DNA from: Candidatus Latescibacterota bacterium
GTDB lineage: Bacteria > Latescibacterota > UBA2968 > GCA-2709665
Length of the DNA: 64,000 nt
Assembly (NCBI GenBank): GCA_965219455.1
Contig: OZ244744.1
Coordinates: 3,936,001 to 4,000,000 of the forward strand
Reading direction: 5' to 3'
Within the stretch, counting starts at the first letter, position 1. The number at the start of each line of letters is the position of its first letter. This document shows, one piece after another, positions 2,847 to 28,981 of this stretch. The notes under the pieces are model-generated. The model was not told the DNA's origin. It did not search any database and saw only the letters and a program-made list of their open reading frames with translations. The position numbers were made by a program, and so were the translations under genes.

Positions 2847-3770
2847 ATGGACCTTTCCACACACATCGGCGGCGGTCTTACCATCAGGAACCCCGTGATG
2901 ATGGCCTCGGGCACCATCGGGCACGGCGCCGAGTACGCGGGGATGTTCGACTTCGCGCGGGTCGGCGGCGTGGTCACCAAAACCATAACCTATCACCCCC
3001 GCGCCGGCAACAGCGCCCCCCGCACCGCGGAAACCCCGTCGGGGATGCTGAATTCCATCGGCCTGACGAACCCCGGACTTGACGGCTTCATTGTGGAAAA
3101 GATCCCGGCCTTACAGGCCCTACCGACAGCGCGGGTTGTCAGCATCGCCGGCACTTCAAACGATGAATTCGCCGAAATGACGCGCCGGTTCAATGACGTA
3201 CCGGACGTCGACGCCCTTGAATTGAATATCTCGTCGCCCAATATGAAAGACGGCGGCCAACTCTTCGGATGTCGAGAGCAGGCCGCACATGACGTCACGG
3301 CAGCCGTAAAGGCAGTCTCAAGGATTCCCGTCATCGTCAAGCTGACGCCCAACGTAACCGACATTGCCGCCGTGGCTGCAGCCGTGGAAGAAGGCGGCGC
3401 AGACGGCATCGCGCTTATCAACACCCTGCTGGGGCTGGCCGTGGACATCGGCTCCCGGCGCCCCGTCTTGGGCAATATCACCGGCGGTCTTTCCGGACCT
3501 GCCATCAAGCCGGTTGCGCTGGCGATGGTGTGGAAGGTCGCAAACACCGTCACGATCCCGATTGTCGGCATGGGCGGCATTGCTACGGCTCAAGACGCAA
3601 TCGAGTTTCTCATCGTTGGCGCATCCGCCGTTCAGGTTGGAACCACCACCTTTATCAACCCCTGGGCTGCCCTGGAGATTGTCGATGGGATCGCCGATTA
3701 CTGCCGCAGCCACCGGATCGGTCGCATATCAGACCTCGTGGGTTCGTTTGAAACCGGGCCGTGGAACTGA
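2847..3770 (+). CDS. pyrD: Dihydroorotate dehydrogenase family 1B, catalytic subunit
   Basis: NPVMMASGT, GMLNSIGLTNPG, ELNISSPN, VKLTPNV, GGLSGPAIKP; follows pyrK. ATG 2847 chosen as start. Confidence 0.95.
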   Translation: MDLSTHIGGGLTIRNPVMMASGTIGHGAEYAGMFDFARVGGVVTKTITYHPRAGNSAPRTAETPSGMLNSIGLTNPGLDGFIVEKIPALQALPTARVVSIAGTSNDEFAEMTRRFNDVPDVDALELNISSPNMKDGGQLFGCREQAAHDVTAAVKAVSRIPVIVKLTPNVTDIAAVAAAVEEGGADGIALINTLLGLAVDIGSRRPVLGNITGGLSGPAIKPVALAMVWKVANTVTIPIVGMGGIATAQDAIEFLIVGASAVQVGTTTFINPWAALEIVDGIADYCRSHRIGRISDLVGSFETGPWN

Positions 3771-8982: not shown

Positions 8983-11900
8983 ATGAACGACCGATCTTCC
9001 CTTTTGTCACGCATTTCCGTCAATCGACCCGTGACGATAACGGTATGTCTGGTAGCCCTGCTCGTAATGGGCGCGGTGGCATATTCCCGGATCGCGGTAA
9101 AAATGATGCCCTCCGGGTTCGATCCGCCCTTTTTGTGGTTAAGCGTCCGGTATCCAGGCTCAAACGCCACGCCTCAGGAGGTCGAGCAGCAGATCACGCG
9201 CCCCCTGGAGGAGCGGCTTCGGACCATCAAAGGAATCGAAAAGGTCCGGACGTACACCGACAGCCGGGGCGTCGGCGCCCCCCTCCGGTTTCAGCAGGAT
9301 GCCGACATGACCCTGGCGTACAACCAATTGCGGGATCAGTTGGACCGCCTCAAACCGGAACTTCCGGACGAGGTGCGAGATCGGATTTTCGTGTGGAAGT
9401 ACAACGACGACGACCGGAGCATCATGTGGGTGGGCGCGGCCATGGACTCCACAATTGTCGATCCGTACCATTTCCTGGAAACACAGGTGCAACGGCCGTT
9501 GGAGCGGATAGACGGGGTGGCCAGAGTGCAACTTTGGGGTGCGGACCCCAAAGAGGTGATGATCGAGATCGACCGCGAGCAACTGATGGCGCGGGGCGTA
9601 AGCGTCTACCAGATGGTTCAGACCCTGCAGAACGACAATTTCGCGCTCAAGAGCGGATACGTGAACGAGGGAACGAAGAAATTCTACGTCCGGTCTCTGG
9701 CGCGATACCGCAGTCTGGAAGAGATCGGCAATATCCCGATCGATTCCCGTGAGGGTGGCGTCAGGCTGCGGGAGGTGGCCGACGTGGTCTACGATGTCCC
9801 GGCTCGAAGCTGGTATCAGCGAATCGACGGCCAGCCGGCCTCATCCGTCGGGATCAAGGCCGAATCGGGAGCCGACATCACAACGGTGTGTGACCGTGTG
9901 GCATCGGCCCTACGGCAGATCGAGACCGCGTCCGGTGCGGCCGGTAAAGTGCAATTCAACGTGTTTTACAATCAGGGCGAGTTCATCCGGGCTTCCGTTT
10001 CCAACTTGAGAAATACGGGCCTCTGGGGCGGGTTGTTTGCCGCGCTGGTCCTGCTGTTCTTCCTGCGGGTCATCCGTATGACGGCCATTATTACGCTGTC
10101 GATTCCGCTGTGCGCAATGATAACCGTAACGGTGCTTTATTTTTCGGGATGGTCTCTGAATCTCATGTCAATGATGGGTCTGATGGTGGGTGTGGGGATG
10201 GTTGTGGACAATGCGGTTGTGATTCTGGAGAACATCTATCGGCGGCGGGAGAAGGGCGAGTCGCCGAAGCAGGCGGCCGTCGTGGGCGCCAGCGAAGTCG
10301 CCATGGCGATCACCATGGCGACGCTGACCACGGTCGTGGTTTTTCTGCCGCTGATGTTGATGACCGGCAATGTGGGGATGACGTTTTATCTGTCTCGAAT
10401 GGGTGTCCCCGTTATCGTGATGCTGGTGGGGTCGTTGTTCGTGGCGCTCCTGATTATCCCGCTGGCCTCGGTGCGGTTCGGCGGCAGCCGGGTGAAGCCG
10501 GATTCCAGGTCGATCGGGTGGGCCCGGATGCGTTATGGCGGCGTGCTGAAATGGGCGTTGAGCCACCGTCGGGACGCAATATTGATCCTGCTGGCGGTAT
10601 TTGCAACCATTTCGATTCCGGCAGACAAAATGAAACGCTCGGATGCCTCCCGGGGAAACATCAACGATATCGATATCTATATTCGCACGCCCCGTGATTT
10701 CTCAACGAATGAGACCTTTGAATTGATGAACGAGGTGGAGGATTTTCTTAACTCCAAGCGGGAGGCATACGGTGTCAGGACCATCCGGTCCTGGTTCCGC
10801 AAGACCCGGGGAAATTTCGAGATCTACCTCGACTCCAATCCCAACGAAGCCTGGTGGTACGTCGCGTACAAGAACCTGAGGTCGGGTCTGGGCGTTCCGG
10901 TGGATAAAACGATAGCCCGCACCGAGGTCATTAAGGATCTGAAACAGAACATGCCCAAGTACGTGGGCGTGCGGATCGGCGTGGAGAGCCGCGGCAGAGG
11001 CGGCGGCGATCCTTCGGTTTCGGTGTATCTCTACGGAGACGACACCGAGGTGCTGGCCCCTCTCGTAACGGAAGTGGAGCGCCGGCTCCGGGCGATACCC
11101 TCGGTGGTAAACGTGGATTCGGACCTGGAACGGTCCACCGACGAGGCGCAGGTCCATATCGATCGGGAGCGGGCGAGGCGCTACGGGATTTCTCCACGGG
11201 TCGTGGCGCGAACGCTTGCCATTTCCATGCAGGGGGTGAGCCTGCCCCGGTTCCAGTCCGGCGAGCGTGAGGTGGATACGCGACTGTACCTGGAAGAGGC
11301 GGACCGGCAGACGCTGCACCATCTCAAGAGTTTTATGTTCAGGTCGGCGTCGGGCGAGGAAATTCCCCTTTCCGAACTGGCCAGCTTCAAGGTAACGCCC
11401 GGGCGCGGGAGAATTCGACGGGAAGACGGAAAGACGCGCCTGGCGGTGAGGGCGTTTACGACCAAGGACGATTTAAAGAGTCTCTACGCGGAAATCGATC
11501 GTGCGATGGCTGGCTTTGAGATGCCAAGGGGCTATTCGTGGAACAAGGGTGAGCGTTTCGCCAGGTTCCGGGAGTCCGACAACGAGACGATATTTGCGGT
11601 GGTGATGGCGGTTACCTGTGTCTTTCTGCTGATGGGGGTGTTGTTCGAGTCCGTGGTTCTTCCGTTCTCGGTGCTGTTTTCCATTCCGTTCTCATTCCTG
11701 GGGGTGTACTGGACGCTCTATCTGACCGGCACGCCGATGGACATGATGGCCAATATCGGCATGATTGTGCTGATCGGGGTGGTGGTAAACAACGCGATCG
11801 TGCTGGTGGATATGATCAACCGGATGCGCCTGGACGGGATGAACCGGACAGAGGCGATTCTGGAGGCCGGGCACAATCGTTTCAGGCCCATTCTGATGAC

Positions 11901-16825: not shown

Positions 16826-17947
16826 TCATCGCCGTTTCCTGGTATACGCCAGTATTCCGTTAACGAGCCGCTCCGCGTTGCGCTCCCTGTCCTTATGATA
16901 CCGAATCTGATACGCGTCGTCTTTATCGTGGACGTTGTGGATCTCAACCAGAATCTCGGCGTGGGCCGAATTATTCCGAAGTACCCACAGGCTCCGCCCC
17001 TGAACCCGCGCGGGCACGTCCGGATGGTTCAGAGCCGAACGCATGATGCGGGCGAAAGTTCTGGAACGGCTGTCAACCTTGCCCCGCCGTTTCAGATAGA
17101 TCGCCAAGGGACCCCTGGAACGCCCGGGGTTGTTGTCCGCATGCAGTGAGACAAACAGACGCCTGCCCCTGCGCGCCCTTTTGAAGAACCGGTTCGCAAC
17201 CCGAACGCGCTGCGAGAGATTGGCGCTCCTGGGTCGCACCCGATCGGAATTTCTCCGGTTGTAACGTTCATCGTTATAGACTTCGTTCTTTTCGTGGACG
17301 AACGTAACCTTGGCCTCCACGTTATCCCGAATCAGATGATTGGGGCTAATCACCGTCAATGCCACTTCCGCGCCCAGAAGTCGAAGTTTCCTGTACATTC
17401 GCAGTGCAATATCGTAGACATATTCATCTTCGACGACGTAAACCCGCTTGTTCTGGCCCGTTATATTGGAAACGATCGCTCCCGGATCGATCCCCCCGTG
17501 CCCGGGGTCGAGCACAATACGCCAGCCCTTGAGCGGCTGCCGTCTCTTCCTGTGGGCCCGGGAGAGAATCTCGTTGTCAAAGGCGCGCAACAGGATCTGA
17601 GCGCGCCGATAGTCCAGACTCGGGGTGGAACGCGAGGCCTCCGAATAGTTCCGGTGCCTTTGCCTGGCCGCGGTTGGCTTTCGCCAGTAGTACGGACCGT
17701 TCTGCGCCTCATATTTGACAATTCTTGGACCCAGCCGCAGCACCTGCCCCGGATAGATGTTATTTGTGCGTAGCTTGTTGATTCGCTTGATCTCCCGGAT
17801 GCTTGTCTGGAACTGCCGGGCTATGGAATACAGAGTGTCGCCCTTCCGGACCTCGTAGTCCGGCGAGAGCGCGGCAAGGGGACTTGCGAACAGCATGACC
17901 AGGCAAAGCCCGGCAGTCAGCAGGCGCAAATGTCGATAGTTTTCCAT
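16826..17947 (-). CDS. N-acetylmuramoyl-L-alanine amidase (Amidase_3) with LysM domain
   Basis: Signal peptide; LysM YEVRKGDTLYSIAR...IYPGQVL; amidase motifs LDPGHGG, VEDE, SLHAD, LVE. Confidence 0.88.
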   Translation of the reverse strand: MENYRHLRLLTAGLCLVMLFASPLAALSPDYEVRKGDTLYSIARQFQTSIREIKRINKLRTNNIYPGQVLRLGPRIVKYEAQNGPYYWRKPTAARQRHRNYSEASRSTPSLDYRRAQILLRAFDNEILSRAHRKRRQPLKGWRIVLDPGHGGIDPGAIVSNITGQNKRVYVVEDEYVYDIALRMYRKLRLLGAEVALTVISPNHLIRDNVEAKVTFVHEKNEVYNDERYNRRNSDRVRPRSANLSQRVRVANRFFKRARRGRRLFVSLHADNNPGRSRGPLAIYLKRRGKVDSRSRTFARIMRSALNHPDVPARVQGRSLWVLRNNSAHAEILVEIHNVHDKDDAYQIRYHKDRERNAERLVNGILAYTRKRR

Positions 17948-18113
17948 AATTATCGTTCTACGCGGAAGCACCAATAGATCGGCGACCACACCTGTCACGC
18001 CCTCCTGAGAGAGCACTTCAGATATTACGCTATTTGTCTGCAAAAGACAAGTCGCCTCCGCCCGGGAACGAGGGGGCAACGACGGCCCGATCCGGTTGTT
18101 TTCGCCTCACGTA

Positions 18114-18128
18114 TGGTGTTATTCACCA
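18114..18128. promoter_or_regulatory. Palindromic upstream activator sequence (candidate PspF-type bEBP site)
   Basis: TGGTG-TTATT-CACCA about 90 bp upstream of the sigma54 box; a degenerate second site lies near 18093-18107. Confidence 0.55.
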
Positions 18129-18214
18129 ACAGTCGATGACAGCCCTGTCTCGTTGTACGGAATAAATTCAGTAAATACAGATACATAATCAAAGTGTGGT
18201 TTTTTTGTCATACG

Positions 18215-18228
18215 GGTACGGTTCTTGC
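18215..18228 (+). promoter_or_regulatory. Sigma54 (-24/-12) promoter of the pspA operon
   Basis: GGTACG-GTTC-TTGC has the exact GG-N10-GC spacing of TGGCACG-N4-TTGC. An AT-rich IHF-like tract (AATCAAAGTGTGG) lies just upstream. Confidence 0.75.
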
Positions 18229-18322
18229 CTCGTGTGGTCGGCAGAACGGTGGAGGAGAACCGGAAATCGGATTTTCTTAACATGGTGGCGTTCAGATGCC
18301 CACCTTAGAAGGGAGTACGACC

Positions 18323-19000
18323 ATGGCCAAAGGGGTTTTCTCCAGAATGGCGGACATTATCAAAGCCAACATCAACGATCTTCTGAATCGCGCCGAAGAT
18401 CCGGAAAAGATGATTCGGCAGATGATTCTCGAAATGGAAGAGGCCGTCAACAAGGCGACTGCGTCCGTCGGGACCGCCGTTGCCAACGAAAAACGCCTGG
18501 AGCGTCAGTTATTGGAAAAAACCGACCAGATCGAAGCCTGGCAGAAAAAGGCCGAACTGGCCGTGGAATCCGGCGAGGACGACCTTGCCAGGCGCGCGCT
18601 GGAACGAAAGGCCGCCCTCGAAAAGGCCGCCCGCGACCTGGAAATCGCTTTCGACGAGAGCCACAAGACCTCGGATCAGCTCAAGAAACAGCTGACGCAG
18701 CTCAAGTCCAAACTGGACGAAGCACGCACCAGCCAGGGCGCCCTCATCGCGCGCCGTCGCGCCGCGCAGGCGAGAAAGCAGATCGCCCAGGGCCTTTCGG
18801 GCATCGGCGATGACGCATTTTCCAGCTTCGAACGCTTCCGCAGCCGGGTCGAAAACGAAGAAGCAGAGGCGTCTGCTCACGCCGAAATTGCGGGTGAGGA
18901 TTCCTCGCTTGAAGACTCGTTCGAAAAACTGGAACGCCGGAACACCGTGGAAGAGGAACTTGAGGCCCTGAAAAACAAACTGCGTAAATCCGATGCGTGA
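18323..19000 (+). CDS. pspA: Phage shock protein A (PspA/IM30, ESCRT-III superfamily)
   Basis: GVFSRMADIIKANINDLLNRAEDPEKMIRQMILEMEE, GEDDLARRAL, VEEELEALK. Confidence 0.96.
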   Translation: MAKGVFSRMADIIKANINDLLNRAEDPEKMIRQMILEMEEAVNKATASVGTAVANEKRLERQLLEKTDQIEAWQKKAELAVESGEDDLARRALERKAALEKAARDLEIAFDESHKTSDQLKKQLTQLKSKLDEARTSQGALIARRRAAQARKQIAQGLSGIGDDAFSSFERFRSRVENEEAEASAHAEIAGEDSSLEDSFEKLERRNTVEEELEALKNKLRKSDA

Positions 19001-19634
19001 ATTGCGAAATATCCTGGACGAAATCGCTTACGAAATTGAAAAGGCGGTGCGCAACACAAAAGAGGCCTGGCGTGACGTCCGGAACACCCGACCCATTCGG
19101 CAAGGACCGCGAACGGTTCGTCACCCACGATCGGGTCGCTCGTCTTTCCGATTCTCCGATCTGGCCACTGACGGGAGCTGCGCCATGCGATACGCCCTCG
19201 CGTTCGTTCTGAAAGCCACAGCGATTTTGTTTGGACTCGGCGGCCTGATGGGCCCCGTGTTCTCCGGTTTCCAGCCGTCCGGCTTCCGCCTGGCCCCGCT
19301 CGATTTCAGCATGGGGCTTGTGGTTGTCGCCATCGCGCTGGTCTTCTGGCTGGCCGGGTGCAGGGTCCACGCGTCGGCCGAGCACAAGCGGTACGCGCAG
19401 TATCAACATCGGCTGCTCAGACTCGCTCGCGAGAAAGGCGGAAGCCTCACGGTTCTGGAGGCTGCTACCGACGGCAGCATGACCGTCGAAAAAGCGGCTG
19501 AAATCCTGGGCGATTTGGCCGTCGGCGGCAGCGCCGAGGTGCGCGTTTCCGAGTCCGGTCTTGTTGTCTATCACTTTCCTGAAGTTGAACGCGGGGCCGA
19601 AAAATACCGGGCGAAACCGGTGGATGACCTTTGA
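18993..19634 (+). CDS. Two-TM membrane protein with C-terminal winged-helix domain
   Basis: Overlaps the pspA stop; two hydrophobic segments, then LLRLAREKGGSLTVLEAA...KAAEILGDL...G...GLVVYHFP. Confidence 0.75.
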   Translation: MRELRNILDEIAYEIEKAVRNTKEAWRDVRNTRPIRQGPRTVRHPRSGRSSFRFSDLATDGSCAMRYALAFVLKATAILFGLGGLMGPVFSGFQPSGFRLAPLDFSMGLVVVAIALVFWLAGCRVHASAEHKRYAQYQHRLLRLAREKGGSLTVLEAATDGSMTVEKAAEILGDLAVGGSAEVRVSESGLVVYHFPEVERGAEKYRAKPVDDL

Positions 19635-19645
19635 TATCTTAAACA

Positions 19646-19829
19646 GTGTTCTGTCCCATAAATTTCTCACCATTCGGCCGCCGATTCATCCCGTCTCGCG
19701 GCGTTGCCTTCGCTCGCCGACCTTACGCAGGTCGCCTGCACTCTGGCGCTGGTTCCTGAGCCGGTCGAAGGATGCGAGCCGGGCGACTCGACTGCCGAAT
19801 TCTGGCAACCTATTTCTGGGACAGAACAC
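19646..19829. mobile_element. 184-bp MITE with 18-bp terminal inverted repeats (IS630-like ends)
   Basis: GTGTTCTGTCCCATAAAT (19646-19663) versus ATTTCTGGGACAGAACAC (19812-19829), 17/18 inverted match; no transposase; GC-rich hairpin-forming interior. Confidence 0.7.
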
Positions 19830-19844
19830 GGACGGAGGGATGTC

Positions 19845-20060
19845 ATGTTTGAAGTTGGCATTGGAATTGCGCTAATTGTTCTCGCGGCGGCGGTCCACAA
19901 ATATGTAGATCGGCAAACCAAAGGCTTCATGCCCGGCAAAGTGGAAGAGCGCCTGAATGTCCGGCTGGACGACCTTGACCGAAGACTGACGGATATCCAG
20001 GAAATCATGATCGCGATCGACGAAAAGCTGACTCGGCCGGGCTCGCGAGGGACCTCGTGA
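19845..20060 (+). CDS. Small single-TM coiled-coil protein (PspB-like)
   Basis: GGAGG RBS; MFEVGIGIALIVLAAAV TM followed by RLDDLDRRLTDIQEIMIAIDEKL coiled coil. Confidence 0.7.
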   Translation: MFEVGIGIALIVLAAAVHKYVDRQTKGFMPGKVEERLNVRLDDLDRRLTDIQEIMIAIDEKLTRPGSRGTS

Positions 20061-20153
20061 TCGGCGAACGCGCGGGCATTGGGGATCCGAGAGAAACCGG
20101 ATCGAGCAACTGCGCCCGGATCAAGCCTACTCAACAACAAGAGGCGTTGAACC

Positions 20154-20528
20154 ATGAACAAAAAGCGGATTCACGTCGGTGAGCGGATTCAGGATGGAGC
20201 GGTTATCGTCTCCGTGAGTGGCGATCCCATTGCACGGCCGGATGTAGCGCCCCTGCGACGCAAAATACGAAACCTGGTCAACGACGGCGCCAGGACGGTC
20301 GTGGTCGACCTTTCAAGGGTGAATCGACTCGGCGCCGCCTTGCTGGGGGAGTTGATCAGGGGTCTGACCACCATAAGAGACGTAGGCGGGGACCTGAAGC
20401 TGAGCGGCGTTTCGGGTCGGATCGAGAGAGTCCTCGCGGTAACGAGACTCTCACGCTTATTCAAGATTGCCTATGCGGGAACCGGTCCGCCGGACGCAGA
20501 CCACAGAACTGTTAAAAAGGTGGCTTGA
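20154..20528 (+). CDS. STAS-domain protein (anti-sigma antagonist-like)
   Basis: VIVSVSGD, VVVDLSRV, LGELI, GGDLKLSG, VLAVTRL; the canonical DSS/TG serine is absent. Confidence 0.85.
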   Translation: MNKKRIHVGERIQDGAVIVSVSGDPIARPDVAPLRRKIRNLVNDGARTVVVDLSRVNRLGAALLGELIRGLTTIRDVGGDLKLSGVSGRIERVLAVTRLSRLFKIAYAGTGPPDADHRTVKKVA

Positions 20529-20595
20529 GACTTCAGTGTATAGGAAATCCACTGCTTGATTTTCGAAACGCGGGGAATCCGGAGGAGGGAACGGA

Positions 20596-21180
20596 ATGAG
20601 CTGGATATTGGAAATGGCGTTAGCCTTATGCCTGTTGATGATTGCGGGTGGGTTTTCAGTCTATCTGATGACTCCCGGTAACAAAAAGCCGAGCGGATCC
20701 ACGGTGGGGATTTTCCTGGCTGTGGCGGCCGTGGGGTTCGTAATCTGGGCCTTAACGTCTGAACGGTGGAACTTGCTTCCAGGTACTGATAATATTCCTG
20801 AACTGACCGAAGCCGGCAGTGCCGGCGGCATGTCGGGCGAAGGCTTGAAGCTATTCCTGGACAATCAACGGCGATTGGAATCCGCTGCCAAAAAACTCGA
20901 AGGCATCGCGAACAGGCTCGAACTGGCTCAATCTGGAACGGGTCTGGGTATCGCAATGGAAATTGGCATCGGAATCTGTCTGATAATTTTTGCCGGGGGC
21001 CTCGTGAGCTATATACACCTCAGGAAAAAGAGGGAGGGCAAAGGGATGAGTCCCGACCGGGCGAGACGAATGGAAACGCGGCTCGACACAGTGGATCAGC
21101 GTTTAAATGAATTCCAGGACGTCCTGATATCCATTGACGACAGGCTGAACCGGTTGAAGGGAAACAAAGTCGCAGGTTGA
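20596..21180 (+). CDS. Three-TM membrane protein ending in a PspB-like module
   Basis: C-terminal MEIGIGICLIIFAGG...RLDTVDQRLNEFQDVLISIDDRL is paralogous to 19845..20060; GGAGG RBS. Confidence 0.75.
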   Translation: MSWILEMALALCLLMIAGGFSVYLMTPGNKKPSGSTVGIFLAVAAVGFVIWALTSERWNLLPGTDNIPELTEAGSAGGMSGEGLKLFLDNQRRLESAAKKLEGIANRLELAQSGTGLGIAMEIGIGICLIIFAGGLVSYIHLRKKREGKGMSPDRARRMETRLDTVDQRLNEFQDVLISIDDRLNRLKGNKVAG

Positions 21181-21303
21181 TCAGCATTGGGACCGGTTAA
21201 CGCCGGTGCAATCCAGCGTTGACGAGGGTTCCTGGTCTCTCGTGAAACTCAGGATAGGATCTTTCATTAAATAAAACACCCGAAAAACAGAAAGGACAGA
21301 GCC

Positions 21304-21480
21304 ATGCTCGCAAAGATTCTCGGTATCATACTCATTGCCATCGGCGCATACCTCGGTATTTTCGAAGCGATCAAGCTGATCGGCGTGTCCCTGGAAGTCC
21401 TGTTTCTGCTCCTGAAACTGCTGGTTTCGTTCGTCCTTATTTACGTGGGTTATCGGCTGCTTGCGAGTGACTCCAGGTAA
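21304..21480 (+). CDS. 58-aa two-TM membrane protein (not in ORF track)
   Basis: AAGGA RBS; MLAKILGIILIAIGAYLGIFEAIKLIGVSLEVLFLLLKLLVSFVLIYVGYRLLASDSR*; fills the gap before the ECF sigma. Confidence 0.75.
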   Translation: MLAKILGIILIAIGAYLGIFEAIKLIGVSLEVLFLLLKLLVSFVLIYVGYRLLASDSR

Positions 21481-21508
21481 TTGACCCTCCTTTCGAGAGG
21501 ATATCCCA

Positions 21509-22087
21509 TTGATGGAAAACGAACGGCATCTGGTCCGGAGGGCCGTCAAAGGTGACGCGGCTGCCTTCGGCATACTTTATAAGGCCTGCCATGAACAGAT
21601 CTACGCCACGATGGTGCGACGAACCAGCGATCCTGAAACCGCGCAGGATCTCGTGCAAACCGCCTTTTTAAGGGCATATACCGCCATGGGTTCCTACCGG
21701 GGAGAGGCTGCGTTTGCCACCTGGCTTACGCAAATCGCGCTGAACGTACATAGATCCCACTTCCGCAAACAGCAGGTGCGCCGGAGGTGGATAAAGGTAT
21801 CCGAAGACCCCGCGGCCCTTGCCGAAGCTACGCGCCTGCCCGCTTGCGGCGAAAATCCTGAGATTTCGACCCAGCGAAACCAGCACCGCGAACTCGTCAG
21901 GAAGAGTATTCGCGCATTGCCGGCCAGATATCGCAAGGTCGTCTGGATGCGTTACGTCCGGGACTGGACATACAAGGAGATTACCCGGGAGTTGCAGCTT
22001 CCAATGGGTACGGTCAAGACCTGGCTCAACCGTGGAAGGTACCAATTGAAGGGCGAATTCAGAAAACGGGGGTTGGACCCCTTCTGA
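21509..22087 (+). CDS. ECF-family RNA polymerase sigma factor
   Basis: GDAAAFGILY, AQDLVQTAFLRAY, FATWLTQIALN, LPARYR, YKEI...GTVKTWLNRGR. Start is 21509 (TTG) or 21512 (ATG). Confidence 0.93.
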   Translation: MMENERHLVRRAVKGDAAAFGILYKACHEQIYATMVRRTSDPETAQDLVQTAFLRAYTAMGSYRGEAAFATWLTQIALNVHRSHFRKQQVRRRWIKVSEDPAALAEATRLPACGENPEISTQRNQHRELVRKSIRALPARYRKVVWMRYVRDWTYKEITRELQLPMGTVKTWLNRGRYQLKGEFRKRGLDPF

Positions 22088-22347
22088 GATGGCGCGCCGC
22101 GGGGTTCCGGACGCGTAGAGTTGAGGGCCGGGTCGGTTCGGCGGTTGAGCTCACGCCAGGCTCGCGGGCGACTTCGCAGGTAGGGAACGACCCGGCGCCC
22201 GTCGTCATCGGCGAAACCCATCGCAATTTTGTGTTGACGTAAAGAATATTCTATATCACATTTCGCAGCGCGGCGCGCATGCCTGGCATGCGCCTGCCTC
22301 TTTCCCACTTACCGTGTGGTACGTGCAAAATCAAGCAGACCCGCAGA

Positions 22348-22968
22348 ATGGAGCCATATTTGGATGCCTGGTGGACGGATCTGACCACGCTCAACCAGAT
22401 TTTCTACGTCGTGGCGATTTTTTTCAGTGCGTTTTTCGTCTGGCAACTCCTGGTGGTTCTACTTGGTCTTGGAGACGGTTCGGATGCAGGCGTTTCCGGA
22501 GATACAAACCTCGGCGACGCCGGCCCGGAACTTAACGACGGACTGGAAGACGGTACGGTTGCTTCTTTCAAACTGCTATCCGTCAGGTCCCTGATCGCCT
22601 TCGGCATGCTGTTCGGGTGGGCGGGCGCCCTGTATCTGGAGAAAGGGTTGGATATTCAGACCGCCCTACTTTACGCGCTTGTCTGGGGCAGTGCGGGCAT
22701 GGCGGTCGTGGCCTATTTTTTCCGCGGAATCCGGCAGCTTACAGAGACTGGAAACGCCAGCCTGGATACATGCGTTGGTACGTCGGGCGAGGTATATTTG
22801 GATATCCCGGAAGGCGGCACCGGACAGGTCCGGGTGATGGAGAGCGGCGCCGTCGCCTACGTATCTGCCCGCGGAAAAAATGGCATGCCCATCTCAACCA
22901 ATACGCCGGTCCGCATTCTACGTGTGCTCGATCCAACCACGCTTGAGGTCGAGCCGTTGGTGTCCTGA
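22348..22968 (+). CDS. NfeD-like (YuaF/YqiJ-type) flotillin partner
   Basis: Three hydrophobic segments, then an OB-fold-like VGTSGEVYLDIP...GQVRV...VRIL; directly upstream of flotillin. Confidence 0.85.
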   Translation: MEPYLDAWWTDLTTLNQIFYVVAIFFSAFFVWQLLVVLLGLGDGSDAGVSGDTNLGDAGPELNDGLEDGTVASFKLLSVRSLIAFGMLFGWAGALYLEKGLDIQTALLYALVWGSAGMAVVAYFFRGIRQLTETGNASLDTCVGTSGEVYLDIPEGGTGQVRVMESGAVAYVSARGKNGMPISTNTPVRILRVLDPTTLEVEPLVS

Positions 22969-23120
22969 GTGGATTTTGGTTCAAATGTCTATGTTTCCAG
23001 TATTTCCTAATTGTCTGATTGCGCCGATGGATGAGACAGGAAGGGTTTTCAACCCGCACGGGATTCGCTCCGGGATAGATCTCAATCAGAGGTGAAATAT
23101 CCAATTGAGGAGGGATTGCA

Positions 23121-24635
23121 ATGGCAACTGAGACGATACTGACAATTATAATGCTGTTAGTGGTATTTCTGCTCTTCGTGACGTTTATTTCCAGGTACAG
23201 GCGGTGTCCATCCAACAAGATACTGGTCGTCTACGGCAAGACCGGACAGGGGGCGGCAAAATGCGTTCACGGGGGCGCTGCCTTCGTTCTTCCGCTCCTT
23301 CAGGACTATGAGTATCTGGACCTGGAGCCGTTTGTCGTTCCCATAGACCTGGACAACGCCCTTTCACAGGAGAACATCCGCGTGTCCGTTCCGACAACCG
23401 TCACGGCGGCGGTTTCAAATCAGGCGGGCGTGATGCAGAATGCGGCAGTTCGTCTCCTGGGTCTTTCACGCGAACAAATCGAGAGTCAGGCGCAGGACAT
23501 CATCCTCGGTCAGATGCGGGCGGTGATAGCCACCATGGAAATCGAAGAAATCAACCGGGACCGGCAGGCTTTCATGTTCAAGGTTAATGAAGCAGTCTCC
23601 ACCGAAATGGAGAAAATCGGCCTGGCCGTGATTAACGTGAACATCAAGGATATTGAAGACGAAAGCGGTTATATCAAGGCTCTCGGGCAAAAGGCCGCGG
23701 CCGAAGCTATCAACCAGGCGACCATCGACGTGGCCGAGCAGGAGAAGACGGGCAAGGTGGGTGTGGCCGAGCGGGAACGGGACCAGCGCACCGACGTGGC
23801 TGCTGCGCATGCGGCCGCCGACATCGGCGAGGCCGAAGCCGCCAGGGACCGGCGCCAAAGGGTTGCCGCCCTCGAATCCGAAGCCCAGATCGGCGAGGCC
23901 GAGGCCACGAGAAACAAACGCCAGATGGTCTCTACTCTGGAAGCGGAAGCGGTCCAGGCCGAGGCCGGGGCCGAGGCAAAAAAGGCCGGTTATATGGCAC
24001 AGCAGACGGTGTCCGAGGAGGTCGCGCGGCAAAAGGGGCAGGAGGCGGCGAAGGCAGCGGACGGCGCCATCCGGGTTGCCCAGGAACGGGCTGAGAAAGA
24101 AGCCGAGGATGCCCGGGCGCTGCGCGAAGTAGCGCGACTGAGAGCGGAAATCGTCGTACAGGCCGATGCGCAAAAGCAGAAGCTGGTCGTACAGGCGGAG
24201 GCCGAGAAGGAGCAGAGGACACTTGTGGCGCAGGGGGAAGCTGCTGCCATTTTGGCACAGAAGCAAGCCGAAGCCGAGGGCACTCAGGCCATCCTGGACG
24301 CCAAGGCGGAGGGCTACAAGGAGTTGGTGGCCGCATGCGGAGGAAACGACCAGGCTGCCGCAGCCTTCCTCATCGTGGAACGGCTGACCGAGGTCGCAGG
24401 TATCCAGGCCGAAGCCATCAAGAATCTGCCCCTGGAGAAGATCATGGTGTGGGATGGTGGCAACGGACAGGGTGGTATGTCCAACCTCGGCCAGCGGCTG
24501 ATGGGCGCCATTCCTCCGATGCACGAACTGGCAAAGTTGGCGGGCCTGGAACTGCCGGAGTTTTTGGGCCGCTTGGCCGGCCAGACCGATCCGACGAGCG
24601 CCGCTGTAGACAAACCGGAAACGCCATCGGAATAG
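23121..24635 (+). CDS. Flotillin (SPFH/band 7) family protein
   Basis: RYRRCPSNKILVVYG, GGAAFVLP, ALSQENIRV, GQMRAVIATMEIEEINRDR, Ala/Glu-rich coiled coil, KIMVWDGG. Confidence 0.95.
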   Translation: MATETILTIIMLLVVFLLFVTFISRYRRCPSNKILVVYGKTGQGAAKCVHGGAAFVLPLLQDYEYLDLEPFVVPIDLDNALSQENIRVSVPTTVTAAVSNQAGVMQNAAVRLLGLSREQIESQAQDIILGQMRAVIATMEIEEINRDRQAFMFKVNEAVSTEMEKIGLAVINVNIKDIEDESGYIKALGQKAAAEAINQATIDVAEQEKTGKVGVAERERDQRTDVAAAHAAADIGEAEAARDRRQRVAALESEAQIGEAEATRNKRQMVSTLEAEAVQAEAGAEAKKAGYMAQQTVSEEVARQKGQEAAKAADGAIRVAQERAEKEAEDARALREVARLRAEIVVQADAQKQKLVVQAEAEKEQRTLVAQGEAAAILAQKQAEAEGTQAILDAKAEGYKELVAACGGNDQAAAAFLIVERLTEVAGIQAEAIKNLPLEKIMVWDGGNGQGGMSNLGQRLMGAIPPMHELAKLAGLELPEFLGRLAGQTDPTSAAVDKPETPSE

Positions 24636-24659
24636 TCACGCTTCATCAGGAGTCACGGA

Positions 24660-26288
24660 TTGAAAAGACCCGCAATACCGGACAACGGGCCGGACGCTGC
24701 CAACCACATCGGTATCGCTCAGTCCCTGCCTGAATCCGAGCATGCCGAAGCCCGGCGGTGCTGCCGCGACGGCGATACCTCGATGGAAACCGGCGACCTG
24801 GCGAAAGCCGAGGCCGCCTACCGGGCGGCGTTATCCGCCGACGTCGAGAATATGCGGGCGCGCCACAATCTGGGTGTTGTCTACTACAGGCAGGGCAACT
24901 GGCGGGACGCGCTGACCTGCTTTACGCGCTGCCTTGCTCGTGCGCCGGAACACGGTGCGGGCTTGTATTTCAATGTAGGCCTCTGCCGGCTAAAAGGGGG
25001 CGTTAACGGAGCTTTGCAGGCCTTTGAAGCCGCCACCGCAGGTAATCCGGACCATCTTGAGGCGCAATTTCAGTTGGCGCTTTTGCAGGCCGAAGGCGTG
25101 GATTCGGGATCGAACGGCCGGCAACGAGCCGTTGAAGCGCTTCGCTACATTCTCGAGGCCGTGGACCGGGGCGTGCCATTCGCCAATGTAGACGGTACCT
25201 GCTTCTTGCTCGCCAGCTTTCTCGACGACCTTCCGGACAACATCGATGAAGCCATCCTGGTCTATCGCCGAGGGTTGGAAGCGAATCCGCTGTTCGCCCC
25301 AGGCCATAACAACCTTGGCGTTCTGCTCATGGAAACGGGTCAGACCCTCCAGGCCCTTGGCGCATTCAAGATAGCCATCCAGCTCGAGCCGGACTATGAG
25401 CTACCCTACAGAAACCTGGCGCACCTTCTTTTTGATCACAAGAATTCGGCACAGATGGAACAGGAATACACTTCCATTATTGAGGAATTCGGCGCAAAGG
25501 CAGCCTCGGTCCTGGCACGCTTATCCCTTGAACTCATCGACCTGGGACGTGTGCAGGTGGGAGAGAGCCTGTATACGCGGGGTCACCAGATCAAGAACCT
25601 GATGGGTCTGGTCGGGAGCCGTACGCGCCGGCTTATTCGAAGGGTCCCGCAGAAAGACACCGTTCTCGACGATCTGAGAAACATCGCCCGCGACCAGGAA
25701 CACATTTACGACCAATGGGTCGCCTATCTGCGCAGCATGAAACAGGATCCGCTGAACCCCTCTCTGGTGGATATTCCGCAACTCGTGGGCAAAATCAAGG
25801 AGACGATCTCGACCCGGACCGGCGGCGCAGCGCTCCGCTTTGCATCTGAACCGCAGGTTCCCCAGGTCAAGGTCGATCCCGGCATGCTGCGTGAAGCCGT
25901 CACCAATCTGATTCTCAACGCGCTTGACGCCGTAGATGAGGATGGAGCGGTCACGGTTCAGGCAGGCTACGACAACAAGCGGGCGTCGGTCTTCATCGAA
26001 GTGGAAGACAACGGACCCGGCATATCCGAAGCCATTCAGGCCAGGATCTTCGATCCCGGATTTTCCACCAAGGAAAAAGGCAATGGCTTCGGCCTCAGCA
26101 TCTGTTCCCGCATTGTATCCGCCCATAGGGGAAGCCTGCGCATGATCAGCCGTCCGGGCGCCGGCGCCGTGTTCCGCATCGACCTTCCGGTGGACTTCGA
26201 ACTTGCCTCCGGACCCGAAAGTATCGGCTGGAGTGGCGATCCGATATCTACCTCGCGGCTGCCGCTGGCCGAAGAATTCATCGAGTAA
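24660..26288 (+). CDS. Cytoplasmic TPR-domain sensor histidine kinase
   Basis: N-terminal TPRs (HNLGVVYY, HNNLGVLL); H-box GHQIKN, N-box NLILNALDA, DNGPGI, IFDPGFSTK, GNGFGL; no TM segment; AGGAG RBS before TTG. Confidence 0.9.
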   Translation: MKRPAIPDNGPDAANHIGIAQSLPESEHAEARRCCRDGDTSMETGDLAKAEAAYRAALSADVENMRARHNLGVVYYRQGNWRDALTCFTRCLARAPEHGAGLYFNVGLCRLKGGVNGALQAFEAATAGNPDHLEAQFQLALLQAEGVDSGSNGRQRAVEALRYILEAVDRGVPFANVDGTCFLLASFLDDLPDNIDEAILVYRRGLEANPLFAPGHNNLGVLLMETGQTLQALGAFKIAIQLEPDYELPYRNLAHLLFDHKNSAQMEQEYTSIIEEFGAKAASVLARLSLELIDLGRVQVGESLYTRGHQIKNLMGLVGSRTRRLIRRVPQKDTVLDDLRNIARDQEHIYDQWVAYLRSMKQDPLNPSLVDIPQLVGKIKETISTRTGGAALRFASEPQVPQVKVDPGMLREAVTNLILNALDAVDEDGAVTVQAGYDNKRASVFIEVEDNGPGISEAIQARIFDPGFSTKEKGNGFGLSICSRIVSAHRGSLRMISRPGAGAVFRIDLPVDFELASGPESIGWSGDPISTSRLPLAEEFIE

Positions 26289-26292
26289 CCTT

Positions 26293-27699
26293 ATGAGTGC
26301 CCAGATCGTTATTGCGGATGACCAGCCCGAAATTCTGGACATGCTCACGCGAAGCCTGCAGGTGGATGGCCGGATCGTGAGGGCCTTTCCGACGGGAAAG
26401 AAGGCCTTTGCATACCTGCGAGAGCACATTTCGGACGTTGACATGGCCATTCTGGATATCGATTTCGGCCCGGCCGAGCCGGACGGTCTGAAAATCCTGC
26501 GGCAGATTCGCGCCCTTGTGCCCGCCTTGCCCGTTATCATCCTTACGGGCAAGGGCACCGTGGAGAACGCAGTAGCCGCCCTGCGCATGGGTGCCTCCGA
26601 CTTTATCGAAAAAGATTTCTATATTGAGGACCGGCTCGAACTCAGCCTGGAAAAACTCGACCGGGTACTTGCCGTCCTTAAGGAGAATGCCCGGCTTCAT
26701 GCCCGGGTAAAGGATCTGGACCGCGAGAATCGTTTCTACCGGGACGAGTTCGGGAAAAAGTACAGGCCGATCAACGCCAGCCCCCAGATGCTGCGGATTA
26801 TGCAGCAGGCCGAGCGTATCGCTTCCATCCCCCGGCCGGTTCTTGTTCTCGGCGAACCCGGCACCGGAAAGGAACTCGTGGCCGCTGCGATCCACTACGG
26901 CGGGGTACGGAGAGATCGTCCTTTCGTTAAAGTCAACTGCGCCGCCCTCTCCGCCAACCTGCTCGAAAGCGAACTTTTCGGCTACGAAAAAGGGGCCTTC
27001 ACCGGAGCTACCGAAGCCCGACCCGGTCGTTTTGAAGCGGCCAACGGCGGTACGCTGTTACTCGACGAAATTGGCAACACCACACCGGAATTCCAGCAGA
27101 ACGTCCTGCGTGCCATCGAATACCAGGAGATTCAACGGGTGGGCGGAGCCACGCCCACCCGCGTGGACGTACGAATCATTGCCGCCACGAATGCCGATCT
27201 TGAACGTGAGATCATCGACGGGCGTTTTCGTCAGGACCTCTTCGACCGCCTGCGCTTTGAAATTATCCGCGTTCCCCCTCTTCGCGACCGGCGTGAAGAT
27301 ATCCAGCCGCTTGCCGGATTTTTCGTTGAACAGATCGTCCGGGAGGTCCCGGGACTCAAGGTCCGTCCGTTTTCGGAAAGCGCCCTCCGCCACCTGTTGG
27401 GCTACCCGTGGCCGGGAAACGTGCGCGAGCTCAAATTCGCCGCCGAACGCGCCACGTGCATGGCAACGGGCGCATCCATCGAAACCCGGGACCTGCCGCC
27501 CGAAATCTCCAGCGGGGCTCCGGCGGCATCGGGAGACGGTTTCGACGCTCAGGTCACGGCCTTTGAACTCGGATTGCTAAGGAGCGCGCTGAGCCGAACG
27601 AACTGGAACCAGCGCAAGGCGGCCGAATCGCTCAGTTTGAGCTACGATCAGTTTCGTCACTTTTACCGAAAGTTCGGACTTGCCAAAGAAAGGTCCTGA
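26293..27699 (+). CDS. Sigma54-dependent response regulator (receiver + PspF-like AAA+ + HTH)
   Basis: Receiver motifs ADD...ILD...LTG...FIEK; GEPGTGKE, GAFTGA, LLDEIG, ATNADL, DLFDRLRF, WPGNVREL; HTH NQRKAAESLSLSYDQFR. Confidence 0.93.
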   Translation: MSAQIVIADDQPEILDMLTRSLQVDGRIVRAFPTGKKAFAYLREHISDVDMAILDIDFGPAEPDGLKILRQIRALVPALPVIILTGKGTVENAVAALRMGASDFIEKDFYIEDRLELSLEKLDRVLAVLKENARLHARVKDLDRENRFYRDEFGKKYRPINASPQMLRIMQQAERIASIPRPVLVLGEPGTGKELVAAAIHYGGVRRDRPFVKVNCAALSANLLESELFGYEKGAFTGATEARPGRFEAANGGTLLLDEIGNTTPEFQQNVLRAIEYQEIQRVGGATPTRVDVRIIAATNADLEREIIDGRFRQDLFDRLRFEIIRVPPLRDRREDIQPLAGFFVEQIVREVPGLKVRPFSESALRHLLGYPWPGNVRELKFAAERATCMATGASIETRDLPPEISSGAPAASGDGFDAQVTAFELGLLRSALSRTNWNQRKAAESLSLSYDQFRHFYRKFGLAKERS

Positions 27700-27729
27700 C
27701 ACGCGTTCTTCATATTAGGAGACCGGAAG

Positions 27730-28518
27730 ATGAATATTGTCGTATTCGGCGCGGCTGGCTGGCTCGGACGGGCGGCGCTGGCCGCTTTGGAGAAAAACCA
27801 TCGGATCCGGGCGTTCGACTTCGGCCCGAAGGCGTGGCGCGCCTGGCAGGACACCGAAGGTGAATGGACGGGCGGCGACGTCGTCCACGGAGATATCGTG
27901 GATTTTGAAGCCGTACACCGTGCCACGGAGGGTATGGACGCCGTTCTGCACATGGCGGTGTACCACTCGAACGATCCGGGCGCCCACGGCGTAGACGACG
28001 TTAAACCCTTCCTCGTCAACGTCAAGGGCCTCTGGAACGTACTGGAATCCGCCCGCCGCCACGGCATCGGGAGGATCGTGCATCTCGGCTCCTGTCAGAC
28101 CGCCCATCCCAGGGGCATCTTCTTCACGGCCGACGTCAGGCGGCCCGACGGCGGCCTTTACGGCGTCACGAAACGCCTTCAGGAAGAAATGTGCCGGCAG
28201 TTCCACGACGCGTTCGGCCTCCGCATTATTGTGCTGCGGCCGGACTACATTGTTGACAGCCGACTCGGTATCGGTCGGTACAAGGAAAAACTTGGTACGG
28301 AAGATCGGCCCTACCGCCAGGGCTGGGTGTGCCGCCACGACCTTGCGGAAGCCTGTCGCCTGAGCCTGGAATCCCAATCCATTGATTTCGACGTTTTCCA
28401 TATCGTGGGAACGCCGGGGGCCGACAGAACCTGCAACGTCGCACGGTCCCGAGAAATACTCGGCCTGGAATACCGGGGAAATCTCGAACAATACCGGACT
28501 GACGCCAGCGTTGAATAG
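27730..28518 (+). CDS. NAD-dependent epimerase/dehydratase (extended SDR)
   Basis: GAAGWLG Rossmann motif, NVKG, YGVTK catalytic YxxxK. Confidence 0.9.
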   Translation: MNIVVFGAAGWLGRAALAALEKNHRIRAFDFGPKAWRAWQDTEGEWTGGDVVHGDIVDFEAVHRATEGMDAVLHMAVYHSNDPGAHGVDDVKPFLVNVKGLWNVLESARRHGIGRIVHLGSCQTAHPRGIFFTADVRRPDGGLYGVTKRLQEEMCRQFHDAFGLRIIVLRPDYIVDSRLGIGRYKEKLGTEDRPYRQGWVCRHDLAEACRLSLESQSIDFDVFHIVGTPGADRTCNVARSREILGLEYRGNLEQYRTDASVE

Positions 28519-28555
28519 AAATAAAACGTGATTTGAAATTCCGGAGGTGGTCCCA

Positions 28556-28981
28556 ATGTCATCCAGGAAAAACGCGCGAATTGCCCGGGAGTCCCTCGAA
28601 GCCGCATTTGCCTCGGACTGGAAACGCCTTCGGGAAACTTACGCCGACGACGCGACCATGGTTGGCGGCGGACTTGACATCCGCGGCGCAGATAACATGG
28701 TGGCGCTCTGGCGGGGCTGCCACGAGGAAGAGCGGGGCCTGCGGCTCGAGATTCTCAACGTTGTCGCCGACGGCGACATGGTCGCTGTGGAGTTTCGCCA
28801 TAAGGGTATTGTAAACCAACCCCTTCCCGGACTGCCCGAAGCGTTATATGGCAAACGGCTCGAAGCGACCGAAGTGCACCTGTGCCGGTTTCGCAACGAC
28901 AAGATTACCGCCGTGACAATCTACGGCGGCGTCTGCGAATCTCCCGACGTCGCGCTGAGACGGGTCTGGGTGGCTGAATAG
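28556..28981 (+). CDS. SnoaL-like / NTF2-family protein
   Basis: YADDA, IRGAD, VVADGDMVAVE, RFRNDKI; GGAGG RBS. Confidence 0.8.
   Translation: MSSRKNARIARESLEAAFASDWKRLRETYADDATMVGGGLDIRGADNMVALWRGCHEEERGLRLEILNVVADGDMVAVEFRHKGIVNQPLPGLPEALYGKRLEATEVHLCRFRNDKITAVTIYGGVCESPDVALRRVWVAE

Follow-up and report, generated by a model that had tools for sequence, protein, structure and literature searches.

A PspF-like sigma-54 activator with a receiver domain and an adjacent soluble TPR kinase at a pspA locus of Candidatus Latescibacterota

PspF is the model for bacterial enhancer-binding proteins (bEBPs) that are regulated solely in trans, with PspA binding to the AAA+ domain. How, then, is a psp locus run in which the activator of this lineage carries a receiver (REC) domain and is encoded directly behind a soluble histidine kinase whose only recognized input is a set of tetratricopeptide repeats (TPRs)? 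The question is raised by a stretch of 64,000 nucleotides from a Candidatus Latescibacterota genome (hereafter the window; positions 3,936,001-4,000,000 of one 5.84 Mb contig), in which both genes lie downstream of pspA (cf. Table 1). An original prediction, made from the sequence alone, had described the regulator as a PspF-type protein rewired to phosphorelay control. The analysis presented here led us to hypothesize, with a probability of about 0.68, that this phage-shock (Psp) membrane-stress locus is governed by the two-component pair and not by a stand-alone PspF, the signal passing from kinase to regulator to pspA, and that the TPRs read PspA. What the sequences show is the domain anatomy of the pair, the affiliation of its AAA+ and REC domains, and the conservation of gene order and of promoter and enhancer motifs; phosphotransfer within the pair, pspA as its target, TPR-PspA binding, and the sign of the PspA effect are inferred from these and from prediction or analogy.

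Anatomy and ancestry of the regulator and its kinase

The long open reading frame of the regulator spans positions 26203-27699; translation probably begins at the ATG of position 26290, which a single base separates from the stop of the kinase gene. Comparison of the long frame with Pfam gave a Response_reg match at residues 35-142 (71.3 bits) and a Sigma54_activat match at residues 191-352 (PF00158, 209 bits), together with AAA_lid_14, a weak match to HTH_8 and a Fis-type helix-turn-helix (HTH). The N-terminal receiver that had been predicted is thus present, and its key residues, D9, D10, D55, the threonine in IILTG and the lysine in FIEKD, align with those of E. coli NtrC, AtoC, and ZraR. 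With these receiver residues, a sigma-54 domain in which GAFTGA is intact and an adjacent histidine kinase gene, the protein has the features of an NtrC-family response regulator, and the arrangement is that of a plain two-component pair instead of the phosphorelay first proposed. All the motifs that had been quoted in favor of a PspF-type protein (IHY, LRAIEYQEIQRVGG, ATNADL, DLFDRLRF, NQRKAAESLSLSYDQFR, and GVRRDRPF) were found in the translation, of which IHY is not specific for PspF, as AtoC has it too. An alignment revealed that PRPVL..GERGTGKE, [VA]IEY, DL.DRL.F, and a one-residue insertion are common to all 44 PspF-like rows and occur in none of E. coli NtrC, AtoC, ZraR, NorR, GlrR, and FhlA. 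The HTH of the regulator aligns with that of E. coli PspF (NQ+RAAE.L.L+Y.QFR) and not with that of AtoC. At the Walker A motif (residue 185, window positions 26844-26846), the window protein and its closest relatives read GEPGTGKE, most of the PspF-like clade reads GERGTGKE, and six other E. coli bEBPs have GE[ST]GTGKE or similar.

The affiliation of the AAA+ domain was assessed with a tree of such domains taken from eight E. coli K-12 bEBPs, Klebsiella and Pragia PspF, all 12 bEBPs of the window's own genome, the related loci, and the highest-ranking single-domain representatives that a search among 1.84 billion proteins returned. The careful tree, which was preceded by two quick ones, comprised 78 rows and 254 columns and omitted E. 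coli RtcR (branch length 3.5-4.4) as well as 44 of the 122 quick-tree rows. It separated 43 rows from 35 with an ultrafast bootstrap (UFBoot) of 100 and an SH-aLRT of 99, and the quick trees agreed. The side of 43 held E. coli, Klebsiella, and Pragia PspF with 9 representatives, 10 proteins labelled REC-less, 7 from Latescibacterota, and 14 other REC-bearing ones, while NtrC, AtoC, ZraR, GlrR, NorR, and FhlA with their kin, the 11 other bEBPs of the same genome, and 11 further representatives made up the side of 35. An approximately unbiased (AU) test rejected the placement of the Latescibacterota proteins with the NtrC/AtoC/ZraR/GlrR groups (delta lnL 111, p 6.6e-5). Judged by its sequence and within the limits of this sampling, phylogeny settles that the AAA+ domain of the regulator is of the PspF kind, as had been predicted. 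The nearest relatives outside the phylum are proteins of 309-347 residues that have no N-terminal domain and adjoin pspA in Calditrichia, Acidobacteria, Lentisphaerales, and others. Enterobacterial matches (L066, L068-L070) were considered as PspF and rejected; they carry N-terminal domains of 180-200 residues and group with NorR. Many top representatives (P0004-P0016 and others) have two or three tandem sigma-54 AAA+ domains per chain (511-1027 residues); such chains may represent genuine fusions, or genes that were merged during gene calling.

According to the available portions of two reports, E. coli PspF binds PspA through the tryptophan W56 (PMC6003685, PMC3709507). The corresponding position of the window regulator reads R (GVRRDRPF), which had been taken as a mark of rewiring. 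This argument fails. A tryptophan stands at position 56 in 12/12 proteobacterial-type rows, in 0/10 of the REC-less-labelled rows, which group with the pspA-adjacent relatives, in 0/7 rows from Latescibacterota, and in 0/14 other REC-bearing rows; since no sampled non-proteobacterial member has it, the REC-less ones included, its absence is no sign of rewiring. The direction of the proposed change, namely that a PspF had gained a receiver, is probably reversed as well. Set against 14 REC domains of outgroup bEBPs, the 21 from the clade cluster together (100/99), and they have in common a two-residue insertion after the phospho-acceptor aspartate. In the AAA+ tree, lineages with a receiver occur to either side of the basal split of the clade, although the support for that split is only 83/74 and 91/90. 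Since the REC domain appears to have a single origin and occurs on both sides of the split, the ancestor of the clade would have had it. The congruent REC and AAA+ trees hence suggest, with moderate confidence, that REC is probably ancestral and that canonical PspF arose by loss of the receiver rather than the window regulator by its gain; a separate loss in the Calditrichia-type proteins is proposed with confidence that is likewise moderate. One sub-lineage (P0017, P0018, P0024, P0028, P0034, P0035, P0040, and P0046) has a receiver-like domain without the acidic pocket, and some of its members also lack the phospho-acceptor aspartate. These degenerate receivers, three of which are missed by Pfam at E 1e-5, may be pseudo-receivers.

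Pfam placed the TPRs of the kinase within about residues 35-260 and its HATPase_c domain (83 bits) within residues 406-511, and it found no PAS, GAF, or HAMP domain and no other sensor domain. The dimerization and histidine phosphotransfer (DHp) region is atypical, as the HisKA model fails to match it. The protein has no membrane segment, the maximum Kyte-Doolittle mean over 19 residues being 1.07, so that Pfam and hydropathy both bear out the original description of a cytoplasmic kinase with TPRs as its sole input. Among 20 homologues with identities as low as 28%, at least 90% keep the histidine of LY..GH..KNL.G, and another alignment, of 24 kinase rows, shows H309 without variation. With this conserved DHp histidine and a HATPase_c domain in which the N, G1, F, and G2 boxes are all present, the protein has what defines a sensor histidine kinase. 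Its C-terminal tail (residues 531-542, window positions 26250-26285) follows the conserved pattern P-[LIV]-A-E-E-F-[ILV]-x-COOH, and a terminal [ED][ED]F[ILV]x was found in 58/120 kinase homologues (46/55 of the class of 525-570 residues and 12/56 of the shorter ones). An acidic-hydrophobic C-terminal peptide is a classic kind of TPR ligand, and the tail might fold back onto the TPR domain of the kinase itself.

The pspA promoter and conservation of the module

Upstream of pspA lies a sigma-54 type element preceded by two candidate enhancers, or upstream activating sequences (UAS; cf. Table 1). The pattern GG[CT]A[CT]-N6-TGC was found once per region, 64-109 bp before the pspA start, in 44/44 regions, that is, the window and 43 loci (two further loci with pspA at the contig end were dropped), the estimated chance expectation being about 1.6% per region. 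In 44/44 regions, too, there is a TGGYG-N5-CRCCA palindrome 91-126 bp before the GG, the criterion being agreement with TGGTG-N5-CACCA at 8 or more of the 10 specified positions, and a second half-site, TTCRCC, at 21-bp spacing is visible by eye in the anchored upstream regions. The genome contains rpoN, and a genome-wide search revealed only 4 enhancer-plus-promoter pairs, among which the pair at pspA alone has a TTGC -12 element. Since two further pspA paralogues of the genome (L002 at 2,945,568 and L003 at 1,486,139) have no sigma-54-type element within 1.5 kb upstream, only the window copy of pspA appears to answer to this regulator. Another match, TGGCAT-N5-TTGC at 19856, was taken as chance; it lies inside the frame of the small PspB-like protein and encodes VGIGIA.

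The enhancer motif was also compared with E. coli. A matrix derived from 26 distinct Latescibacterota sites scored 14.8/15.7 and 8.9 bits on two E. coli sites 20 bp apart (L004:3413 and 3433, spanning 3413-3447). These fall between pspF and pspA, and the GG of the E. coli sigma-54 promoter follows them at distances of 99 and 79 bp. This was the only pair with sites of at least 8.5 bits and a spacing of 18-24 bp in the 133 kb of E. coli sequence scanned. The E. coli pspA promoter is described with two UAS in the accessible text of one report (PMC3709507), to which the matrix-found pair may correspond. Since a matrix built from Latescibacterota sites finds the E. coli pair, the enhancer code of the PspF lineage seems to be conserved across phyla. 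We consider pspA the likely target of the regulator.

For gene order, 48 genome loci of the Latescibacterota type and 80 metagenome loci were collected. Among the former, tblastn found pspA in 45/48 and the TPR kinase in 47/48, on the same strand as the regulator; the loci missing either gene are short contigs (2.8-6.5 kb), and pspA is 60-96% identical across the 45/48 loci. L049 and L050, which are the most divergent loci (57-59% identity), comprise just pspA, the gene of a 213-aa membrane protein, the kinase, and the regulator, which makes the flotillin gene and that of the extracytoplasmic function (ECF) sigma factor dispensable passengers. A second lineage is known from a single representative cluster: its members at NCBI bear the name Kofleriaceae, and some of those in IMG, 473-480 residues long, are automatically named PspF. 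It was traced in metagenomes, where the 34 loci longer than 7 kb, of the 80, were examined. There, pspA follows right after the regulator in 34/34 loci (with a gap of 17 bp in L093), and a kinase with a homologous catalytic region precedes the regulator in 32/34; in L093, the one locus scanned, Pfam matches to TPRs and the GH..KNL motif were confirmed. An ECF sigma gene comes after pspA in 28/34 of these loci, and in both lineages the ECF sigma factor is likely a second regulatory layer on the same locus. In L093 it occupies 10649-11248 and is followed by a 453-aa protein with one membrane segment, which may be an anti-sigma factor. A recurring sigma-54 match about 2.1 kb upstream of pspA in the second lineage was set aside; it lies inside the kinase gene and probably reflects coding sequence. 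The 213-aa protein had no match in the second lineage at E 1e-4, and no non-regulatory partner other than PspA is shared by the two lineages. The module of TPR kinase, regulator, and pspA therefore occurs in at least two distant lineages and is not a one-off.

The kinase-PspA contact and competing explanations

Because PspA is the only non-regulatory protein that both lineages have in common, it was chosen as the partner for a complex prediction with residues 1-300 of the kinase, each chain being supplied with its own alignment. The TPR-PspA pairing, the one pairing covered, reached an ipSAE of 0.75 in 3/3 runs, while the best of 3 controls gave 0.00; the mark is attained by 58/80 solved complexes and 2/110 mismatched pairs, counts that hold here roughly, since the chains had their own alignments. 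The runs agreed in at least 92% of contacts, and the partner pLDDT was at least 78. In the model, residues 203-244 and 272-280 of the kinase, which belong to its most conserved TPRs, lie on residues 8-10, 19-23, 41-62, and 109-123 of PspA, that is, on the alpha1/alpha2 hairpin; this offers a concrete contact, that of the two kinase segments with PspA 41-62 and 109-123. The predicted interface is richer in invariant columns than the remainder of either protein (10/27 versus 31/273 in the kinase, p 0.0012; 15/28 versus 67/197 in PspA, p 0.037). We know of no solved TPR-PspA complex, so it seems unlikely that the prediction merely repeats a known structure. E. coli PspA binds PspF with its fragment 1-144, as stated in the available portion of PMC6003685, and the predicted contact would thus use the equivalent part of PspA. 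The model supports binding of the PspA hairpin by the TPR domain, and with it the earlier guess that the TPRs sense PspA, at the level of structure prediction. Such a contact would explain how a soluble kinase that has no membrane sensor reads membrane stress.

Taken together, these observations would fit the following course of events. Free PspA would sit with its alpha1/alpha2 hairpin on the TPR domain of the kinase and keep net phosphorylation of the regulator low. Membrane damage would draw PspA away and release the kinase, which would autophosphorylate on His309 and pass the phosphate to Asp55 of the regulator's receiver. The phosphorylated regulator would then assemble on the pair of TGGYG-N5-CRCCA sites, some 100 and 122 bp ahead of the sigma-54 promoter, and open this promoter, allowing expression of pspA and of the genes for membrane proteins that follow it. 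As to the sign of the PspA effect, inhibition of the kinase by free PspA is assumed by analogy with the PspA-PspF feedback of E. coli. The receiver might act through relief of repression, as in NtrC1, or through positive assembly.

Several results weigh against the control of pspA by this pair, and some of them fit a different explanation, which we regard as very unlikely: that the pair is an ordinary NtrC-family two-component system that merely lies near a psp locus and serves another target (the flotillin/NfeD genes or a distant operon), its PspF likeness being generic to AAA+ domains. The whole protein scored 339.8 with TIGR02974, the PspF equivalog, for a cut-off of 443.55, which is about equal to its scores with the AtoC (338.9) and NtrC (333.8) models; it stayed below the cut-offs of every named equivalog tried (NtrC, AtoC, ZraR, and GlrR), while Klebsiella and Pragia PspF reached 532 and 536 with TIGR02974, above its cut-off. 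Its AAA+ stretch alone had the top TIGR02974 score of its genome (306.7, the next bEBP having 300.4), and ordinary bEBPs of other genomes reach about 300 bits. The TIGR02974 score that had been proposed as a check is therefore not discriminating, and percent identity was rejected as a membership test, as the AAA+ domain is 49-50% identical to each of E. coli PspF, AtoC, ZraR, and NorR. The rows of the AAA+ tree were drawn from the best matches to the query, which may flatter the PspF-like clade. The pair stands directly behind the flotillin gene and about 5.7 kb from pspA and its promoter, with the ECF sigma gene and the flotillin operon between them, and a second target besides pspA is possible. 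A regular-expression search found no sigma-54 element near the module of the second lineage, and the same expression found one within 300 bp of pspA in only 3/11 of the REC-less loci, where intervening genes probably carry the promoter. To these points are added the missing Pfam match to HisKA, the roughness of the ipSAE calibration mentioned above, and the fact that the organisms are uncultured. An ordinary NtrC-family system is nevertheless hard to reconcile with the AAA+ tree and its AU test, with the shared motifs, the one-residue insertion, and the PspF-like HTH, and with an enhancer motif common to the window locus and the E. coli psp region. Moreover, pspA stays beside the pair in loci devoid of the flotillin and ECF genes (L049 and L050) and in several that have no flotillin, and does so in the second lineage too, and the genome has no other clean enhancer-plus-promoter pair.

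It is also conceivable, yet in our judgment unlikely, that the pair controls pspA while the TPRs bind something else, either another protein of the locus (the 213-aa protein, the PspB-like proteins, the anti-sigma apparatus, or the STAS protein) or the conserved C-terminal tail of the kinase itself, with PspA acting directly on the AAA+ domain or giving no feedback. The complex prediction covers the PspA-TPR pairing only, and from one lineage to the other its interface residues are kept no better than the remaining ones (kinase 0.17 versus 0.20, PspA 0.30 versus 0.26 for the rest), which also counts against PspA as the ligand. In Latescibacterota, the 213-aa protein is as constant a neighbor as pspA, and the conserved tail in 58/120 kinase homologues resembles a TPR ligand. 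The REC-less relatives adjacent to pspA lack W56 too, and a W56-independent contact of PspA with the AAA+ domain can therefore be imagined. On the other hand, the TPR-PspA prediction is far above its controls and places the interface on the most conserved part of the TPRs, and PspA, unlike the 213-aa protein, is found in both lineages. PspA remains, in our view, the most likely ligand of the TPRs. A further step, offered tentatively and in our own opinion doubtful, is that the ancestral Psp circuit was itself a two-component one, in which a soluble TPR kinase bound the PspA hairpin and phosphorylated a REC-bearing PspF. The textbook PspF would then have lost both receiver and kinase and moved the docking of PspA onto its AAA+ domain (W56), and the Latescibacterota and Kofleriaceae-like lineages would keep the older wiring.

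Neighboring genes and comparison with known systems

The genes between pspA and the kinase are listed in Table 1. The 213-aa membrane protein has no Pfam match under E 0.01, and tblastn found its gene kept behind pspA in related loci, including the minimal loci L049 and L050. The proteins encoded at 19845-20060 and 20596-21180 have in common a membrane segment (GIGIAL / GIGICL) with a coiled coil behind it, and this module occurs in one to three copies per locus in related genomes; the two look PspB-like in form, and neither matches a Pfam family. Of the proteins by which a Psp system is recognized, the locus has a PspA/IM30 protein; in its small membrane proteins, Pfam found neither a PspB or PspC domain nor any other match at E up to 1. 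The STAS protein scored under the cut-off of TIGR00377. A cell-wall hydrolase with LysM and Amidase_3 domains (16826-18079, minus strand) is divergent from the pspA regulatory region. Scans of 17900-28600 for terminators and sigma-70 promoters gave nothing usable for setting the limits of the operons. Elsewhere in the genome, two giant sigma-54 activators were noticed (G000:C1, about 2,880,900-2,885,800 and 5,068,600-5,073,400); their open frames of 1641 and 1605 residues include N-terminal regions of about 1300 residues, the two are mutual sisters in the AAA+ tree, and a domain-less bEBP of 345 residues is encoded directly behind the second.

Table 1. Features of the pspA locus, in window coordinates
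Feature	Position	Strand	Basis or remark
Distal candidate enhancer CGGTTGTTTTCGCCT	18093..18107	+	21 bp upstream of the proximal site; read from sequence
Proximal candidate enhancer (UAS) palindrome TGGTGTTATTCACCA	18114..18128	+	101 bp upstream of the -24 GG
Sigma-54 type -24/-12 element	18214..18229 (GG 18215-6, GC 18227-8)	+	Upstream of pspA
pspA, 225 aa	18323..19000	+	PF04012 (PspA/IM30), 163 bits
213-aa membrane protein, without Pfam family	18993..19634	+	Translation; overlaps the pspA stop
Small protein, one membrane segment and coiled coil	19845..20060	+	PspB-like in form only
STAS-domain protein, anti-sigma-antagonist type	20154..20528	+	Pfam STAS and STAS_2
194-aa membrane protein	20596..21180	+	Query cross-matches; C-terminal part like the small PspB-like protein
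ECF-type sigma factor	21509..22087	+	Sigma70_r2, r4_2; TIGR02937 over cut-off
Membrane protein in NfeD position upstream of flotillin	22348..22968	+	Inferred from position; weak NfeD match, E 0.052
Flotillin / SPFH protein	23121..24635	+	Band_7, 94.6 bits
Soluble TPR histidine kinase, 542 aa	24660..26288	+	TPRs, atypical DHp with His309, catalytic domain
REC-AAA+-HTH sigma-54 activator, PspF-like clade, 469 aa	26290..27699	+	Pfam, alignments, trees; probable start

The literature search found no receiver-bearing PspF, no TPR kinase with PspA, and no pspA with NtrC-like activators in Myxococcus; the supplements of two surveys (PMC11237479, PMC9239133) and the web application of the former lay outside this search. 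In its accessible text, the Psp survey leaves PspF and two-component systems out of its detailed analysis (PMC11237479), and PspF-like proteins outside Enterobacteriaceae are described, in the portion available, as hard to tie to a Psp response (PMC9239133). A two-component system that drives a PspA homologue is known from Bacillus subtilis, where the histidine kinase and response regulator of LiaFSR-LiaIH induce a PspA-family gene under envelope stress, according to the same survey (PMC11237479). However, LiaS is membrane-bound and has a HAMP domain, whereas the window kinase is soluble and has TPRs, and LiaR is a REC-winged HTH protein that acts at sigma-70 type promoters, whereas the window regulator is a sigma-54 AAA+ activator. 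The order REC-linker-AAA+-HTH is that of NtrC1, NtrC4, and DctD-type proteins; PDB 1NY5 and 4L4U were the best full-length matches among solved structures (271.5 and 266.2 bits), and the long helical linker after REC suggests that the receiver controls assembly of the ring. By analogy with E. coli NtrC, AtoC, and ZraR, the AAA+ and REC domains of NtrC1 and NtrC4 would nonetheless fall outside the PspF-like clade. Of the non-proteobacterial REC-less activators near pspA (L052-L064 and L072, from Calditrichia, Acidobacteria, and Lentisphaerales), the eight whose loci were in the tree belong to the same AAA+ clade. These activators also lack W56, but they are 309-347 residues long and have no receiver, and tblastn revealed no adjacent homologue of the window kinase. 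Desulfovibrio vulgaris DVU2989 is a REC-less PspF-like activator of this kind next to pspA, as far as the available text of PMC4641369 describes it.

A further comparison is that with the E. coli PspF-PspA system (pspF divergent from pspABCDE). The two have in common (i) an activator of the same AAA+ clade with a similar Fis-type HTH, (ii) a sigma-54 type promoter of pspA behind two enhancer sites of similar sequence, candidate ones in the window, at about -80 to -120, and (iii) PspA as the likely feedback signal. PspF is classified as a type Ic bEBP, which has no N-terminal regulatory domain (PMC3162934), and it is likewise described without a regulatory domain in the accessible portions of further reports (PMC4641369, PMC11237479), whereas the window regulator has a receiver (Response_reg, 71.3 bits) and a dedicated kinase, and lacks W56. 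Its gene is co-directional with pspA and 6 kb downstream of it instead of divergent, the locus has no PspB or PspC Pfam domains, and the predicted docking surface for PspA lies on the kinase rather than on the activator. If this reading is correct, the PspF activator lineage, its kind of enhancer site, and its pspA target can be run through a kinase.

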